Of a stretch of DNA of 64,000 nt, positions 3,109-56,900 are shown in pieces. Location: the NCBI GenBank assembly GCA_038087875.1, contig CM075988.1, forward strand, positions 8,868,001-8,932,000, given 5' to 3'. The stretch comes from Malacoraja senta (taxonomy: Eukaryota). Each line of letters begins with the position of its first letter. Position 1 is the stretch's first letter. The notes under the pieces were generated by a model that saw only the letters and a list, made by a program, of their open reading frames with translations, did no database searches and was not told the origin of the DNA. The position numbers and the translations under genes were made by a program.

Positions 3109-3744
3109 CAATTGAGAGGGAGATCATGAGAACTTACTGAGTTTTGTGAACATTTGTGAACATTTGTGAACAATGGAACAAAATTTAACAGCAGCCTCAT
3201 TATCCACTCACAGCAAGAACAGAGACAGTGATCCCGAGGAGAAAAGGTAATAGTGACTCTCAAACGATGGAGAAAAAGTGTGTCAAGGGGAGAGAGGACA
3301 AGATGGAGTTTTTTCAGGAGGAAGAGGAGAGAGGCTCTCTCTCAAAGCAGGATCAATCAAAAAGAGGACTTTCCAATGGGGGAAAGTGGGAAAAGAGGGC
3401 AGAGAATGTTGTGCGAGGGTACTGAGGATTGTCATACATGTTTAGCGTGCAGTGTTGGAAAAGAGAAAATGAGAGAGAAATAATCAGGTTATTTCAAACC
3501 ATAATAGGAGAGTAAGGTTTGAATAGCAAATCTTTCAGAAGATAAATAAATTTAATATTGAAAAATGGAAATGCCGGAAATCTAAAATAAAACCAGAAAA
3601 TGCCACAGGGAGACACAAAATGCTGCAGTAACTCAGCGGGGCAGGCATTTTGTGTCTACCTTTGATTTAAACCAGCATCTGCAGTTCTTTCCTATACACA
3701 TTGTACACAGGGAAATAGTTAACAATGATGAAGAGTCCTGGACA

Positions 3745-16925: not shown

Positions 16926-17214
16926 GGGGTGAGTTAGATGTGCTTGATTAAGAGAATACATTGAAAGGTATAGATAGGCAAAGCTCAGCATTTAAGGAAA
17001 GAATGCATCAGTTGCAAAAAAAATCCTTCAAGGCATTAAAACCCACAATGAAAAATTATTAATCCATGGCTGACAAGAGAAATTGAAGTCAGCATTAAAT
17101 CCAAAGAGGAGGCTTATAAAGTTGCCAGAAATAGCAGTAGGCATTTACGGACTCAGTAAAGGAGGACCTAGAAATTGACAGATACAGGCAAGCTAGGATA
17201 TGAAAGTAGGATGG

Positions 17215-17357
17215 TAGGGTGGGAGATTGCAACGTTCACGTGGTCCGCCCTGTTTCGACGAATGCAATCAACCTGGCGTGCACAATCAAATAAGATCAAA
17301 TAGAACAAGTTGTCCGACAACTTTAGGCTGTGCAACTTTAGCCATACGCAAGAAGAA
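17215..17357 (+). mobile_element. Short non-autonomous ribozyme-headed retroelement (possibly Ingi/Vingi-derived)
   Basis: 13-bp TSD GAAAGTAGGATGG (17202-14 and 17358-70). 3' end CCATACGC(AAG)n. Inserted in an old CR1 fragment. Confidence 0.75.
17216..17269 (+). ncRNA. Minimal HDV-like ribozyme fold, copy A
   Basis: P1 AGGGTGG/CCGCCCT, P2 GATTGCA/TGCAATC, P3 ACG/GGT (1 mismatch), L3 TTCACGT, GT-TTCG-A in place of P4, J4/2 CGAA. Confidence 0.8.
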
Positions 17358-18260
17358 GAAAGTAGGATGGCGAGAAGTATAAAAATGGGGTGTGAAACCT
17401 ATACACTTTCTTAAAAAGGAAACTATGTGAGGATGAATATGGGCCCTTTACAGAGAGAGAGGCAGCAGAATTTATGGAAATACAAGAAACAGCAGACGCT
17501 GGAATCTGGAGCAGAATGTAAACTCAATGGATCAAACAGCATCTGAGGACTTCTGATGTAAGGTCTCGACTCGAAACGTCAACCATCATTTCATTCCCAC
17601 GGATGTTGTTTAACCCATTGAGTTCCTCTGGCAGTTGTTTTTTTTGCGACAGGAGAACTCATGATGATCTACAAGAAAAAAGCAGAGGAATTAAACAACC
17701 ACTTAGCATTTGTCTTTGCAGAGGCATGAGTTAGAGAATCAAAGGATAGGAAGAATGAGCTATTGTTCTAAAATAAGCACAGCTACAAGGTGGAGTGCTG
17801 GCAGTTCCACATTGGAATCCATACAGAGAGAAAGGATTAACAAATTGGAAGCAATTGGCTACTAAATCTTTGTACTGGATCAGAAGCCTCAGAAATTGTA
17901 GACTTTAGGAAGTGCAGATGCTTGTTTATCAAAAAAAGAGACAAAGAGCTGGAGCAAACCAGTGGGTCAGATGGAAAATCTGGAATACATGGATAGGCAA
18001 CAATTCGGGTCGGGACCCTTCTTCTCCCATGACTAAAGTCCACCAAACCAGAGTGGAGTGGGGCTACATATTCTGAAGAAGGGTCCCGACCTAAAACGTC
18101 ACCTCTCCATGTTCTCCAGAGAAACTGGCTGATCCGTTGTTACTCCAGCACTTTGTACTTCTAGGAGATTTATTATCTTACAAGGACAATGGTTAGACGG
18201 AATGAATCAAGATAATGTATTTTAACAAATGATTTCTTTAACATCATTTCATCTGTTTAG

Positions 18261-45290: not shown

Positions 45291-45964
45291 TTAGCTCAAG
45301 AAATTTTTCTCTTCTTCAATTAGGACTAAGGTTCTTCATTACTTCCATCTGTCCTTGCTGACAGATGCTTATTTTAAACTTAATGGGAGTGTAGAATCTT
45401 CAACAGCTCGATCAATAGTGCATTGAAATGTCAATCTTAGATTATGTGCTCAAATTCTGGATTTTAAATTAGGTAGTTAAATCCTAAAGTAGGGATTTAA
45501 TGAAAAGCCTCTGATAGTGGTGAGAGTGAGACTAAGCCAACACATTACTTTTAATTCAGTTTAGCTTCAGGTGGAAGTGGATTAGGAACACAATCATTTG
45601 TTGGATATACCTGCATGTGTTTATTGTAGGCACCCAGGAGATTTCTAAGTAACAGATAGAATGCTTTTGTACATTACATGTGTACAGTGAAGAATAAATG
45701 CTGCTCCTATGGAATCCCTTAATGGTTGCTTTGCTGAGAGTTAGAGTGATAATGGCACTCAAGTTTTCCAGGTCAGCTCTGTCGCGTAACTTTTCCAAGC
45801 AATTTTTTGTAGCTGGTATGAAGAACAAGCAAAAGGTAGGAATGAAAAGAAAATTAGGCTCAGTGCAATTAGGAGATTTTTGTTGGCTGGGAATATTGAA
45901 GGGTGAGCAGCTGAGAAAGTTGGAGTTCAGATATAGATCAGTTAGTTTAGTTTAGTTTAGAGAT

Positions 45965-46017
45965 GGGGGTCAAGGAAAGAGCATTCACGTCGCGGCCCTG
46001 TTTCCACCAATCTTTCC
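45965..46017 (+). ncRNA. Minimal HDV-like ribozyme fold, copy B
   Basis: P1 GGGGGTC/GGCCCT, P2 GGAAAGA/TCTTTCC, P3 GCA/CGC (1 mismatch), L3 TTCACGT, GT-TTCCA, J4/2 CCAA. Confidence 0.8.
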
Positions 46018-46135
46018 ACCACCATGCACAAGAAGCACAAGAAACACAAGACAGACACCATTGTGCAGATGCCGAGAAGTGTGTTCAGCTCTGGCTGAAC
46101 AACTTCTAATCTTGTACGTGGACTTGATAAGAAGA
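45965..46135 (+). mobile_element. Short non-autonomous ribozyme-headed retroelement, second subfamily
   Basis: TSD AGTTTAGAGAT/AGGTTAGAGAT (45954-64 and 46136-46), (AAG)n tail. Inserted into the tail of a minus-strand V-SINE. Confidence 0.72.
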
Positions 46136-46834
46136 AGGTTAGAGATACAGAATGGAAACAGGTCATGCGGTGAAAGGAGTTCATGCCGACATCTTCACAC
46201 TAGTTCTATGTTATCCCACTTTCTCATCCATTGCCTACACACGAGGGGGAAATTTACAAAGGCCAATTAACGTACAAACCTGCACGTCTTTGGGATGTGG
46301 GAGGAAACCGGAGCACCCGGAGGAAACCCATATGGTCACAGGGAGAAGGTAGAAACTCCACAGAGGCAGCACCTGAGGTCAGGATGGAACCCAGGTCTCT
46401 AATGTTGTGAGGCAGCGGCTCCACCAGCTGCACCACTGAGCAGCATTAACCTGAATGTCACCTATGTGGTTTAGTGTGCACTTTAATAGAACGCTGGCCG
46501 TTGACAATAATAAAGGCTAGGAAAATAATATGTGGCAACTAGCAATGAAGGGAAAGGAAATCCAGAGTATAGGAGTGATTTCAGTGATATTATCATTGTC
46601 TCTGTGTTAGGACATTGAGTCCAGAACTAGGGGCCACAGTTTAAGAATAAGGGGTAAGCCATTTAGAACTGAGATGAGGAAACACTTTTTCTCACAGAGA
46701 GTTGTGAGTCTGTGGAATTCTCTGCCTCAGGGCGGTGGAGGCTGGTTTTCTGGATACTTTCAAGAGGGAGCTAGCTAGGGCTCTTAAAGGTAGCGGAGTC
46801 AGGGGATATGGGGAGAAGGCAGGAACGGGGTACT

Positions 46835-48747: not shown

Positions 48748-50742
48748 CCAGTAGTGGGGAAGATGCTGGAGTCGATTATTAAAGATGCTATAGCAGCGCA
48801 TTTGGAAAGCAGTGACGGGATCGGTCAAAGTCAGCATGGATTTATGAAGGGGAAATCATGCTTGACAAATCTTTTGGAATTTTTTGAGGATGTAACAAGT
48901 AGAATGGATAAGGGAGAGCCAGTGGATGTGATGTATCTGGACTTTCAAAAAGCCTTTGACAAGGTCCCACACAAGAGATTAGTGTGCAAAATTAGAGCAC
49001 ATGGTATTGGGGGTAGGGTATTGACATGGATAGAGAACTGGTTGACAGACAGGTAGCAAAGAGTAGGAATTAACGGGTCCTTTTCAGAATGGCAGGCAGT
49101 GACTAGTGGGGTACCGCAAGGCTCGGTGCTGGGACTCCAGTTGTTTAAAGGTTTAAAAGGTTCAAAGGTATTTTATTGTCACGTGTATCAATTAAGGTAC
49201 AGTGAAACTTGATTTACTATACAGTCATACTAAAAAAAGCAACAAGCCACATAACTACATAAAAGTTAACATAAACATCCACCACTGCTGTTTCCCCACA
49301 TTCCTCACTGTGATGTAAGGCAATAAAGTCTAAACTTCTTCACTATTCTTCCGCGGTCGGGGCAGTCGAACCAGCCGCAGTCGGGGAGATCCATAACCCC
49401 ACGTCGGGGTGGTCGAAGCTCCCGCGATCGGGACGGTCGAAGTTCCTGCGGCCTGGAGCTTCCGAAGTCAGTTCAAAACCAAGGGATCGCGAGCTCCATA
49501 ACATTAAAGTCCACAGGCTCCCGCGGTTGGAGCTCCAAGGTTGACCCCCAACAGGGACCACGAGCTCCACGATGTTAAGTCCGCAGGCTCCCGCGGTGGA
49601 GCTCCCAAAGTCGATCCCCAGCAAGAGGCCACCAGCTCCTCGATGCTGGGCCGCAGTGCGGACGGAGATATGATACGGAAGAAATCGCATCTCCATCGAG
49701 GTAAGAGATTATAAAAGTTTCCCCCAACCCCCTCCCCCCCTCCACCCCCCACATAAAACAGCTAAAGAGCACTAAAACATACATTTAACACATACTAAAA
49801 ACAACAAAGAAAGAGAGAAAAGGACGAGAGACTGTTGGTGAAGCAGTATATATTTACAATATATATTAACGATTTAGACAAGGGAATTAAATGTAACATC
49901 TCTAAGTTTGTGGATGACACAAATCTGGGTAGCAGTATGAGCTGCGAGGAGGATGCTATGAGGCTGCTGGGTGACTTGGATAGGTTTGGTGCGTGGGCAG
50001 AAGCAGTATAATGTGGATAAATTTGAGGTTATCCACTTTGGTGGCAAGAACAGAAAGGCAGATTATTATCTGAATGGTGTCAGATTAGAAGGAGAGGAGC
50101 AACGAGACTTGGGTGTGCTTGTACATCAGTCACTGAAAGTAAGCATGCAGGCACAGCAGGCGGTGAAGAAAGCTAATGGCATGTTGGCCTTCATTGCGAG
50201 AGGATTTGAGTTTAGGAGCAAGGAGGTCATATTGCAGTTGTACTGGGCCCTGGTGAGACCGCACCTGGAATATTGTGTGCAATTTTGGTCTCTTAATTTG
50301 AGGAAGGACATTATTGGTATTCAGGGAGTGCAGCGCAGGTTAATTCCTGGGATGGCGGGACTGACGTATGATGAAAGAATGGGTCGACTGGGCTTGTATT
50401 TGCTGGAATTTAGGATGATAGGAGATCTTATAGAAACATATAAAATTCTTAGAGGATTGCACAGAGTAGATGCAGGAAATATGATCCCGATATTGCGGGA
50501 GTCCAGAACCAGGGGTCACAGTTTAAGAATAAGGGGTAGGCCATTTAGGACTTAGATGAGGAAAAACGTTTTCACCCAGAGAGTTGTGAATCTGTGTAAT
50601 TCTCTGCCACAGAAGGCAGTGGAGGGCAATTCACTGGATGTTTTCAAGAGAGAGTTAGATTTAGCTCTTAGAGCTAAGGGAATCAAGGGATATGGGGGAA
50701 AAAGCCAGAACGGGGTACTGATTTTAGTTGATCAGCCATGAT
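48748..50742 (+). mobile_element. CR1 RT fragment, interrupted by a GC-rich element at about 49145-49848
   Basis: ORFs 48658, 49971 and 50556 are homologous to the CR1 at 55800-57100. Confidence 0.9.
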
Positions 50743-53935: not shown

Positions 53936-56900
53936 ATATCCTGGCGGGGAGATCTGCAAAGGCTACTGGGGAGACTTTAAACTAGAATGGTTGGGGGGAG
54001 GGACTCAAATAGAGAATGCTATTAGACAGTGTGTGAGGCAGGAGGCAGAGAAGGAAAGCACTCAGACACAACATGTAGGGGGGAAAGAAGAAAACAATAA
54101 TAAACAGAGAATAAGAGGTGGTGGGGTTCTTAAATGGGTGAGCAGAGAAACAGAGGGGTGTAAAATGCGGGCTGAAGCAATAGGTAGCAAGGTGAAAAGT
54201 AAAAGTGGCAGGCAGACAAATCCAGGGCAAAAATCAAAAAGGGCCACTTTTCAACATAATTGTATAAGGGGTAAGAGCATTGTAAAAACAAGCCTGAAGG
54301 CTTTGTGTCTCAATGCAAGGAGCATTCGTAATAAGGTGGATGAGTTGAACTTGCAGATAGCAATTAATGATTATGATATAGTTGGGATCACGGAGACATG
54401 GCTCCAGGGTGACCAAGGCTGGGAGCTGAACATCCAGGGATATTCAATATTCAGGAGGGATAGAGAGAAAGGAAAAGGAGGTGGGGTAGCGTTGCTGGTT
54501 AGAGAGGAGATTAACGCAGTGGAAAGGAAGGACATTAGCTTGGAGGATGTGGAATCGGTATGGGTAGAGCTGCGAAACACTAAGGGGCAAAAAACGCTGG
54601 TGGGTGTTGTGTACAGGCCACTTAGCAGTAGTAGTGAAGTTGGGGATGGCATCAAACAGGAAATTAGAAATGCGTGCAACAAAGGCAAAACAGTTATAAT
54701 GGGGGACTTCAATCTACATATAGATTGGGTGAATCAAATTGGCAGGGGTGCTGAGGAAGAGGATTTCTTGGAATGTATGCGGGATAGTTATCTAAACCAA
54801 CATGTAGAGGAACCAACGAGAGAGCAGGCTATTCTAGACTGGGTATTGAGTAATAAGGAAGGGTTAGTTAGCAGTCTTGTTGTGCGTGCCCCCTTGGGCA
54901 AGAGTGACCATAATATGGTTGAGTTCTTCATTAGGATGGAGAGTGACATTGTTAATTCAGAAACAACGGTTCTGAACTTAAAGAAAGGTAACTTTGAGGG
55001 TATGAGACGTGAATTCGCCAAGATTGACTGGCAATTAGTTCTAAAAGGGTTGACGGTGGATATGCAATGGAAGGCATTTAAAGACTGCATGGATGAACTA
55101 CAAAAATTGTTGATCCCAGTTTGGCAAAAGAATAAATCAGGGAAGGTAGTGCATCCATGGATAACAAGGGAAATCAGGGATAGTATCAAAGCAAAAGATG
55201 ATGCGTACAAATTAGCCAGAAAAAGCAGCATACCAGAGGACTGGGAGAAATTCAGAGACCAGCAGAGGAGGACAAAGGGCTTAATTAGGAAAGGGAAAAT
55301 AGATTATGAAAGGAAACTGGCAGGGAACATAAAAACTGACTGCAAAAGTTTTTATAGATATGTGAAGAGAAAGAGATTGGTTAAAACAAATGTAGGTCCC
55401 TTGCAGTCAGAAACAGGTGAATTGATCATGGGGAACAAGGATATGGCGGACCAATTGAATAACTACTTTGGTTCCGTCTTCACTAAGGAAGACATAAATA
55501 ATCTGCCGGAAATAGCAGGGGGCCGCGGGTCAGAGATGGAGGAACTGAGTGAAATCCAGGTTAGTCGGGAAGCGGTGTTGGGTAAATTGAATGGATTAAA
55601 GGCCGATAAATCACCAGGGCCAGATAGGCTGCATCCCAGAGTACTTAAGGAAGTAGCTCCAGAAATAGTGGATGCATTAGTGATAATTTTTCAAAACTCT
55701 TTAGATTCTGGAGTAGTTCCTGAGGATTGGAGGGTAGCAAACGTAACCCCACTTTTTTAGAAGGGAGGGAGAGAGAAAACGGGGAATTACAGACCAGTTA
55801 GTCTAACATCGGTAGTGGGGAAACTGCTAGAGTCAGTTATTAAAGATGGGATAGCAGCACATTTGGAAAGTGGTGAAATCATTGGACAAAGTCAGCATGG
55901 ATTTACGAAAGGTAAATCGTGTCTGACGAATCTTATAGAAGTTTTCGAGGATGTAACGAGTAGAGTGGATAGGGGAGAACCAGTGGATGTGTTGTATCTG
56001 GACTTTCAGAAGGCTTTCGACAAGGTACCACATAAGAGATTAGGATACAAACTTAAATCACACGGTATTGGGGGTTCAGTATTGATGTGGATAGAGAACT
56101 GGCTGGCAAACAGGAAGCAAAGAGTAGGAGTAAACGGGTCCTTTTCACAATGGCAGGCAGTGACTAGTGGGGTACCGCAAGGCTCAGTGCTGGGACCCCA
56201 GCTATTTACAATTTATATTAATGACCTGGATGAGGGAATTGAAAGCAACATCTCCAAGTTTGCGGATGACACTAAGCTGGGGGGCAGTGTTAGCTGTGAG
56301 GAGGATGCTAGGAGACTGCAAGGTGACTTGGATAGGCTGGGTGAGTGGGCAAATGTTTGGCTGATGCAGTATAATGTGGATAAATGTGAGGTTATCCACT
56401 TTGGTGGCAAAAACGGGAAGGCAGAATATTATCTAAATGGTGGCCGATTAGGAAATGGGGAGATGCAGCAGACCTGGGTATCATGGTACACCAGTCATTG
56501 AAAGTAGGCATGCAGGTGCAGCAGGCAGTGAAGAAAGCGAATGGTATGTTGGCTTTCATAGCAAGAGGATTTGAGTATAGGAGCAGGGAGGTTCTACTGC
56601 AGTTGTACAGAGTCTTGGTGAGACCACACCTGGAGTATTGCGTACAGTTTTGGTCTCCAAATCTGAGGAAGGACATTATAGCCATAGAGGGAGTGCAGAG
56701 GAGGTTCACCAGACTGATTCCTGGGATGTCAGGACTTTCATATGAAGAAAGACTGGATAGACTTGGCTTATACTCGCTAGAATTTAGGAGATTGAGAGGG
56801 GATCTTATAGAAACGTACAAAATTCTTATGGGGTTGGACAGGCTAGATGCAGGAAGATTGTTCCCGATGTTGGGGAAGTCCAGGACAAGGGGTCACAGCT

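Follow-up and report, generated by a model that had tools for sequence, protein, structure and literature searches.

Predicted HDV-like ribozymes of the CPEB3 type at the 5' ends of non-LTR retrotransposons in Malacoraja senta

The stretch of Malacoraja senta DNA analyzed here (assembly GCA_038087875.1, contig CM075988.1, positions 8,868,001 to 8,932,000 of the forward strand; 64,000 nt, hereafter the window, in whose coordinates the features are given) contains, at 45966–46137, a short mobile element that is flanked by a target-site duplication (TSD) and ends in (AAG)n. This element, copy B, belongs to a family of non-autonomous retrotransposons that lack long terminal repeats (non-LTR retrotransposons) and measure about 170 nt, family B. 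Its components, all on the plus strand, are a predicted 52-nt ribozyme at the 5' end, a short body with a long-range stem, a piece resembling the C-terminus and 3' untranslated region (UTR) of a long interspersed element (LINE), and the (AAG)n tail. A sister-family element, copy A, lies at 17216–17358 on the same strand. We consider it highly probable, at roughly 0.85, that copy B is an insertion, now dead, of a bipartite, ribozyme-headed non-LTR retrotransposon that carries no open reading frame (ORF).

The 8-nt TSD TTAGAGAT occupies 45957–45964 and is found again at 46139–46146. An extra G at 45965 separates it from the family start, whereas in most copies GGGGTC directly follows the TSD; copy B therefore has an offset of −1 in the TSD analysis described below. 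The preliminary description of this locus had set G1 at 45965. The insertion does begin directly after the TSD, as stated there, but 45965 is the extra base and the family G1 is 45966. The motif resembling the ribozymes of hepatitis delta virus (HDV) and CPEB3 spans 45966–46017, as delimited by the cmscan alignment to the Rfam model of the CPEB3 ribozyme, RF00622, by family comparison and by covariation, and it has no P4 domain. P1 joins 45966–45971 to 45994–45999 (6/6 bp), and P2 joins GGAAAGA at 45974–45980 to TCTTTCC at 46011–46017 (7/7). In P3, 45981–45983 with 45991–45993, two of the three pairs are formed and an A.C mismatch is present at 45983. These helices enclose L3, TTCACGT, at 45984–45990, the GT of J1/4 at 46000–46001, the linker TTCCA in the position of P4 at 46002–46006, and the J4/2 segment CCAA at 46007–46010, of which C46007 stands at the place of the catalytic C. 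A C had been thought to be missing from P1'. The family head has four G and three C, so that P1 (GGGGTC/GGCCCT, with G1 opposite T) is complete at 6 bp and nothing is lacking.

Downstream of the ribozyme motif, a strand at 46022–46033, CCATGCACAAGA (family: CCACGCACAAGA), is paired with one at 46110–46121, TCTTGTACGTGG (family: TCTTGTGTGTGG), in minimum free energy (MFE) folds computed for the window copy and for four natural B copies. A TGCACA...TGTGCA pairing had been described as retained in both copies; in these letters it exists in copy B only by virtue of two copy-specific changes, the family stem being that of CCACGCACAAGA and TCTTGTGTGTGG. The MFE folds also contain an internal hairpin, AGAAGT-GT-GTTCAGC...GCTGAAC-A-ACTTCT, at 46075–46107, which in addition translates as ...DAEKCVQLWLNNF-stop and resembles the C-terminus of LINE-A, a LINE introduced below. 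The element closes with (AAG)3 at 46129–46137, and the same tail is found on B copies, A copies, LINE-A and LINE-C.

Copy B is inserted inside another interspersed repeat. Uninterrupted paralogues of this host repeat, in the flanks of two other loci (L007 and L080), read ...tttagtttagagatacagc..., and since the empty site is known from them, the limits of the insertion are firm. The host repeat itself (window 45930–45964 and 46150–46440; ...tttagtttagagat, then acag...ggaggaaaccggagcacccggaggaaaccc...) is abundant and flanks or interrupts many of the loci that we fetched. Aligned over 174 nt with an unrelated copy, L045, copy B shows 93.7% identity. Its P3 strand reads GCA where the family has GCG, a point change that agrees with the damage to P3 suspected from the window alone. 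The ribozyme of copy B is under no selection and is probably impaired by the resulting mismatch, judging from the letters of this copy and its family.

Copy A has the same organization: a 54-nt P4-less ribozyme motif at 17216–17269, a body, and (AAG)3 at 17350–17358. Its TSD, AAGTAGGATGG, lies at 17204–17214 and again at 17360–17370. It is 92.3% identical over 142 nt to another family A copy, L006, and carries its own changes, with G1 altered to A and P3 ACG in place of the family's ACC. The head of family A reads GGGGTGG-GA-GATTGCA-ACC-TTCACGT-GGT-CC(G/A)CCCT-GT-TTCGA-C(G/T)AA-TGCAATC, and that of family B reads GGGGTC-AA-GGAAAGA-GCG-TTCACGT-CGC-GGCCCT-GT-TTCCA-CCAA-TCTTTCC. Much of what the preliminary description said in comparing the two copies is borne out by these family sequences. 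P2 differs in its letters and is fully paired in both (GGAAAGA/TCTTTCC in B, GATTGCA/TGCAATC in A). P1 and P3 differ on both strands (GGGGTC/GGCCCT and GCG/CGC in B, GGGGTGG/CCGCCCT and ACC/GGT in A). L3 TTCACGT and CTGTTTCnACnAAT are common to A and B, and both copies end in (AAG)3.

The shared motif TTCACGT-N(3–12)-CTGTTTC occurs twice in the window, in copy A (17235) and in copy B (45984), and in 0 of 100 shuffled windows. Across the 1.94-Gb genome it was found 3547 + 3594 times, versus 369 + 476 for the reversed control. Family B alone exceeds 1,000 copies in the genome: a 37-mer of its core, allowing at most one mismatch, gave 513 + 561 matches, and a 42-mer of its tail, allowing at most two, gave 787 + 864, with 0 for the control in both cases. 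A whole-window Rfam scan in E-value mode revealed no further copies in the window. A candidate third family sharing L3 and CTGTTTC, sought with a pattern excluding A and B, was rejected, its 72 + 66 matches being mutated A or B copies. Neither element has a classical head of a short interspersed element (SINE), as no tRNA, 7SL or 5S Rfam family matched at E ≤ 10 in 45900–46200 or 17150–17450; the head is the ribozyme motif. A minority of B copies (L117, L119, L124 and G000:C1:6208103-6208165) have GGCCCCT, with four C, in P1', probably by homopolymer slippage, and reach 36–44 bits on the CPEB3 model.

The 5' boundary of the elements was defined by a TSD analysis, which sought in each copy a duplication joining the sequence before the head with the sequence after the tail. 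Ten rows representing LINE heads were excluded, because their tails lie outside the fetched loci. In family B, 31 of 45 copies had a TSD of 7–15 nt, and the junction fell at G1 in 26 of these 31 (offset 0 in 13, +1 in nine and +2 in four), the offsets of +1 and +2 arising because the target continues with G. In family A, a TSD was found in 20 of 26 copies, with 14 of the 20 at offset 0 to +2. Complete copies thus begin at G1.

The parent of family A was reached through one A-like locus, L014, which continues into an open frame that starts like an APE endonuclease. Searching the genome with its 78-aa N-terminal piece yielded 22 places, and an A-type ribozyme motif lies about 50 nt upstream of the ATG in 12 of them; seven other places examined were 5'-truncated or rearranged. 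The element to which they belong, LINE-A, is about 3.3 kb long and has a single ORF with an APE-RT-CCHC order (RT, reverse transcriptase) and the A-type ribozyme motif at its 5' end. In one copy, L103, the ORF extends from an ATG at 401 to a stop near 3366 and ends in a C-x-C-x8-H-x4-C motif; it was read piecewise because this copy has frameshifts. A Pfam scan of L103 detected only the APE and RT domains, and neither RNase H nor an ORF1 was seen. The LINE-A 3' end in L086, ...CTACAACTTTAGGCTGTGCACGCCATACGC(AAG)n, is the family A tail letter for letter, with the stop codon about 25 nt before the tail. As expected of a LINE, its 3' ends are far commoner than its heads, with at least 151 matches when the best 150 of 3678 candidates were scored. 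Since both the head and the 3' end of LINE-A are present in family A, family A is a bipartite internal-deletion derivative of LINE-A. Family B has the corresponding layout, with a 5' module, no ORF, TSDs and a C-terminus-like 3' piece that translates as ...PLYADAEKCVQLWLNNF-stop and resembles the LINE-A end ...HPVTDAVLAWMSTLDLQL-stop.

For the classification of these LINEs, we used the RTclass1 reference RT domains (supplement of PMC3708506), finding entries by short motifs of the L103 RT. From ASYRPISLL to GLLLK, 58 of 88 positions in the L103 RT are the same, as counted by eye, in the entry "Ingi-1_AAl Ingi hedgehog", and the RTE and trypanosome Ingi entries retrieved are clearly further away. 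The closest references, by eye and without a tree, are metazoan entries labelled Ingi, from hedgehog and amphioxus. We take the hedgehog elements under this label to be those later named Vingi. The RT of LINE-C, a second LINE described below, is 57.7% identical to that of LINE-A over 111 aa and is visibly like the amphioxus "Ingi" references. A search of the ESM Atlas with the LINE-A RT returned generic RVT_1 clusters only. Vingi has been described as a sister of Ingi without RNase H (PMC13708176) and with a single ORF of 993 aa (PMC3708506), in the accessible parts of these papers; LINE-A has a single ORF of about 990 codons, with APE and RT and without ORF1 or RNase H. From their RT sequences, LINE-A and LINE-C probably belong to the Ingi/Vingi group, and within it to Vingi. 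The guess of an Ingi/Vingi relationship, made from the window alone, fits the reference RTs as compared by eye.

LINE-A also presented several other features. In L081 (the same locus as L014), L086 and L091, LINE-A 5' pieces lie inverted beside LINE-A 3' ends, the pattern expected of twin priming. In L103, an insertion at L103:245-300, in J1/2 between P1 and P2, comprises about 52 nt that look like the beginning of another interspersed repeat. The start of the ORF (L103:401-445, and L014) reads MP-VT-NPNGPSQGQ, in which NPNGP differs by one residue from the NPGP of the 2A peptides that Ingi elements carry there. An N-terminal 2A peptide was considered and set aside, the motif being NPNGP rather than NPGP and the accessible part of PMC3708506 reporting no 2A in Vingi; NPNGP is probably not functional as 2A. 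Elsewhere in the window, 48830–49150 and 55780–56230 give weak translated RT matches (27–46% identity to LINE-A and LINE-C pieces) and are fragments of more distant LINEs.

Running RF00622 over the genome extended the series. When the best 59 of 102,231 first-look candidates were scored, at least 51 matched at E ≤ 0.001 and at least 39 exceeded the gathering score of 35 bits, the best reaching 64.2 bits, while none of 14 control genomes gave a match. The 21 places that we fetched comprised B copies and four more families, C to F, all with P4; these four were found only through the Rfam model. The head of family C is GGGGATC-AA-GGTAGAA-GCG-TTCACGT-CGC-GATCCCT-GT-CAAGTAAT-loop-ATTACTTG-CGAA-TTCTACC. 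All four family C copies scanned scored 59.7–64.2 bits (E about 1e-16), the heads occur 8 + 7 times in the genome at two or fewer mismatches, and four of five begin with GGGGATC after unrelated flanks. Family C heads a LINE as well. LINE-C (loci L104–L107 and L125, L108, and L109) has a P4-bearing 73-nt ribozyme motif, an ATG about 30 nt later followed by ...SLNVEGLSATKEELVAQLCREHQCDILCLQETH, an APE domain and a C-terminal CCHC motif. One whole copy, G000:C1:217550496-217553635, measures 3,140 nt from G1 to (AAG)n and is flanked by the TSD GACAGAACAAAA.

Families D, E and F scored 38.4–59.7 bits on RF00622 (12 of 12 copies). Family D has a longer P4 and CTAA in J4/2, family E has TTCTCGT as L3, and family F has a short P4. 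Family E is old and rare, with 2 + 2 matches at three or fewer mismatches and copies that are 80–88% alike. Its members (L112, L113, L115, L118, L121 and L127–L130) are dispersed and consist of a 68-nt ribozyme motif followed by about 35 shared nucleotides. At one E-type locus, L127 (G000:C3:83740410-83740800, minus strand), the TSD ATAGTTGT lies directly before G1 and is repeated behind a poly(A) run about 250 nt downstream. The locus resembles a retrocopy of the poly(A) type made from an RNA with its 5' end at G1, and would in that case lend independent support to an RNA terminus at this position. Two F-type loci, L131 and L132, also share 25 nt upstream of the ribozyme motif, at different distances from it; family F may sit inside a larger repeat, or one of these copies may have lost its P1 strand.

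Comparison of the families revealed that the fold is conserved while its letters are not. We aligned 23 natural copies from families A to F with MAFFT and counted pairs in P1, P3, P4 and the crossing P2. Of all paired cells, 90.3% could pair, versus 72.7% in shuffles (0 of 500 reached the observed value) and 36–47% when the partners were slid by 1–3 columns. Both sides change in 18 of 25 pairs, versus 3–5 when slid, and the covariation score is 0.451 versus 0.05–0.10. Two-sided changes occur in 3/7 pairs of P1, 6/7 of P2, 2/3 of P3 and 7/8 of P4. Because the aligned rows are related and MAFFT misplaced one F copy by one column, the shuffle figure is not a probability, and it is the slid controls that carry the case. 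The nested double pseudoknot, with P2 crossing P1, is thus present by covariation. Around it, L3, the GT of J1/4 and the C-N-A-A segment are nearly invariant across the six families, and the G1/T pair at the base of P1 is seen in each of them. The column of the catalytic C in J4/2 is at least 90% C among the 23 copies, and the counterpart of copy B's C46007 in the RF00622 consensus is the C of CGAA. Self-cleavage of the HDV type, 5' of G1, is the activity that this architecture would predict.

The preliminary description had proposed from the compensated P2 that selection acts on structure, and the covariation across the six families upholds this. It is the source lineages on which this selection acts, single insertions being exempt from it. 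CpG-type changes are found in P3, L3 and P1 of the window copy and of many others, and among 17 headed B copies picked by their tails alone they are common in P3, L3 and P1', so that individual insertions decay freely.

A second structural feature joins the two ends of the elements. In families A, B and C, bases starting 4–5 nt after P2' are complementary to bases ending 6–7 nt before the tail. In A, this panhandle consists of GGCGTGCACA/TGTGCACGCC in the short element and CGTGCACA/TGTGCACG in the LINE; in B, it is the long-range stem CCACGCACAAGA/TCTTGTGTGTGG; and in C, CTTTGAAGC/GCTTCAAAG would join the 5' UTR to the 3' UTR by 9 bp. The letters of the three panhandles are unrelated and the geometry is the same. 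The panhandle would set the ribozyme-made 5' end beside the tail and may form part of what the RT requires. Such a requirement would explain why the elements must keep both ends, and also why just the ribozyme-bearing LINE clades yield bipartite non-autonomous elements made of a 5' and a 3' part.

These observations suggest the following course of events. The element, having no polymerase III head, would be transcribed within longer host or read-through transcripts. By analogy with the LINEs R2, RTE and L1Tc, the HDV-like fold would cut this RNA directly 5' of G1. The freed RNA could then be copied by target-primed reverse transcription from its (AAG)n end, with the enzyme supplied in trans, presumably by a compact LINE of the Ingi/Vingi group that has a single ORF (APE-RT-CCHC) and bears the same kind of ribozyme, a panhandle and an (AAG)n tail. 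Cleavage at this site followed by target-primed copying would yield complete copies that begin at G1 and are flanked by 8–17-bp duplications.

The CPEB3 model recognizes these families to different degrees. Copy B scores 27.7 bits on RF00622 (E 1.6e-5 in 301 nt and 0.0033 in the whole window), and no other HDV-like Rfam family matches it at E ≤ 10. Seven of seven intact B copies score 28.7–33.1 bits, and four other B copies 37.4–43.7. The RF00622 consensus and the common B sequence have an uninterrupted run of 18 letters, GCGUUCACGUCGCGGCCC, in common. Family E is closest to CPEB3 in its helices, with P1 GGGGGCC/GG(C/T)CCCT, P4 CAGATTC/GAATCTG, and a P2, AGCAGGA/TCCTGCT, that is one compensated pair away from the consensus AGCAGAA/UUCUGCU; by our own count, a decayed E copy (L112) matches 54 of 67 RF00622 positions. 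This comparison was made with the Rfam model consensus and not with mammalian sequences. The resemblance to the CPEB3 ribozyme pointed out at first for copy B thus carries over to the Rfam model, copy B having 27.7 bits and families C to F 38–64 against the cut-off of 35. As far as these sequences go, CPEB3 likeness is a property of the family level. The further suggestion that such elements are candidates for the source of the CPEB3 ribozyme gains from the at least 39 genome matches over 35 bits, from family C heading a LINE and from the helices shared by family E.

We lean, by a modest degree, toward the view that the mammalian CPEB3 ribozyme is a domesticated 5' ribozyme of a retrotransposon of the Ingi/Vingi group, derived from an E-like insertion in an ancestral CPEB3 intron that the host has kept. 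With the same slight preference, CPEB3-type ribozymes could then be regarded as the ordinary 5' module of a vertebrate LINE group, occurring in full form in families C to F and in P4-less form in A and B. Rfam describes the CPEB3 ribozyme as mammalian, and a search of full-text literature, with subscription papers outside its scope, turned up no paper that derives it from a mobile element.

Several results weigh against the picture assembled so far. Five of the 31 family B junctions have 1–3 extra bases, and the TSD script gave no duplication for 14 of the 45 B copies and six of the 26 A copies. A search for the parent LINE of family B was unsuccessful: of 20 places selected by the B tail and lacking a head, none ran into an ORF, and 17 proved to be B copies with mutated heads and three were 5'-truncated. 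The clade assignment comes from comparison by eye, without a tree. Copy B lies below the gathering score of 35 and gives no match in gathering mode. The A-type copies barely register on the CPEB3 model, with 10.6 bits for copy A and no match at E ≤ 1 for any of six short family A elements or four LINE-A heads. Finally, initiation at G1 by an internal promoter, as known for Pr77 of L1Tc (PMC3383444, in its accessible part), would account for the start at this base as well.

The CPEB3 likeness might alternatively have arisen by convergence, with constrained cores (a G-rich P1, a GC-rich P3, L3 and J4/2) giving similar letters independently. We regard this as unlikely, though it retains some weight. 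Helices vary freely between families A to F within one genome, so that helix letters are unstable over long periods; the A-type copies score as low as 10.6 bits even with the CPEB3 L3; and the comparison is restricted to the Rfam consensus, with the mammalian sequence outside it. Against this, only six nucleotides are said to be invariant across HDV-like ribozymes as a class (PMC8256844, in its accessible part), which makes a likeness of this degree to CPEB3 hard to ascribe to shared constraints. All four C copies and all 12 copies of D to F also score above the cut-off, the 54 of 67 matched positions in L112 include P4 (CAGAUUC/GAAUCUG), with P2 differing by a single compensated pair, and only the CPEB3 model among the HDV-like families matches at E ≤ 10, with none of the 14 control genomes matched.

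It is also doubtful, more so than convergence, that the conserved 5' fold serves solely as a structured 5' UTR, that is, as a promoter within the element, as a determinant of translation or stability, or as part of the site recognized by the RT, with G1 as the transcription start. In L1Tc, the first 77 nt act as promoter and as ribozyme, as part of PMC3383444 describes, the panhandle beside the fold suggests a role in template recognition, and families A and B have no P4. On the other hand, the whole catalytic layout (G1.U, L3, the GU of J1/4, the C of J4/2 and covariation in P1, P2 and P3) is kept in six families, HDV-like ribozymes without P4 are known (PMC10879173, in its accessible part), and the roles of promoter and ribozyme are not mutually exclusive. 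That copy B is a ribozyme domesticated by the host to regulate a local transcript, like CPEB3 in mammals, is hardly credible, since nothing beyond the fold speaks for it and copy B belongs to a set of over 1,000 near-identical insertions, lies within another repeat, carries the P3 mismatch along with other copy-specific changes, and is 93.7% identical to an unrelated copy.

A dispersed, ribozyme-headed retrotransposon family can be compared with several known systems. The CPEB3 ribozyme has the same fold, and its L3 UUCACGU, P3 GCG/CGC, J1/4 GU and the C-N-A-A-U before P2' are also found in family B. It is single-copy in a mammalian CPEB3 intron, whereas the elements described here are multi-copy, TSD-flanked and placed at the 5' ends of mobile elements, and those of families A and B have no P4 and a P1 of 6 or 7 bp. 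In the trypanosomatid ingi clade, L1TcRz of L1Tc and NARTc is an HDV-like ribozyme heading, within the first tens of nucleotides, both a single-ORF Ingi-group LINE and its ORF-less derivative by internal deletion (accessible parts of PMC3185411 and PMC4035085), as here. The present elements differ in their vertebrate host, in their CPEB3-type sequence, and in a LINE of about 990 codons without RNase H by Pfam; no promoter function is known for them. In R2 and its SIDE derivatives, a 5' HDV-like ribozyme sets the RNA's 5' end, and the internal-deletion derivatives keep the ribozyme and the 3' end (PMC3414825, in its accessible part), which is alike here. R2 is specific for a site in the ribosomal DNA and uses a restriction-like endonuclease, whereas the elements here are of the APE type and dispersed, with variable TSDs on either side.

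In the minimal HDV-like ribozymes (drz), the P4 domain is absent (PMC10879173, in its accessible part), and families A and B have a 5-nt linker in its place. These minimal ribozymes and the phage theta ribozymes come from metagenomes and phages and lie beside tRNA genes; in the present case, the P4-less form heads a vertebrate retrotransposon with P4-bearing sister families. Vingi LINEs (hedgehog Vingi-1_EE derivatives, SINE2-1_ACar of Anolis and SINE2-1_AMi of alligator) offer the same combination of a compact single-ORF LINE with ORF-less derivatives made of its 5' and 3' parts. According to the accessible text of PMC5786205, about the first 74 nt of a Vingi are reused in a SINE, and non-autonomous LINEs of the bipartite kind have been described for RTE, Ingi, Vingi and R2. 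The papers searchable in full text mention no ribozyme in Vingi, and the elements described here are headed by one. Ribozyme-headed elements as such are known; what is new is their occurrence as non-LTR elements, probably Vingi-type, that have CPEB3-type sequence and in part lack P4.

Our findings would add Vingi-type elements, which are now used as tools for gene insertion (PMC13708176, in its accessible part), to the LINE clades that employ HDV-like ribozymes. They also place P4-less minimal HDV-like ribozymes, whose origin and role are called open in the accessible part of PMC10879173, in a vertebrate and with a biological role. The six covarying sequence families constitute a natural series for mapping the parts of the fold that are needed. 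The CPEB3 ribozyme has been tied to memory-related regulation of CPEB3 (PMC10919898, in its accessible part). With at least six co-existing lineages that display graded CPEB3 likeness and would perform the 5' processing of retrotransposons, the origin of this ribozyme becomes directly testable.

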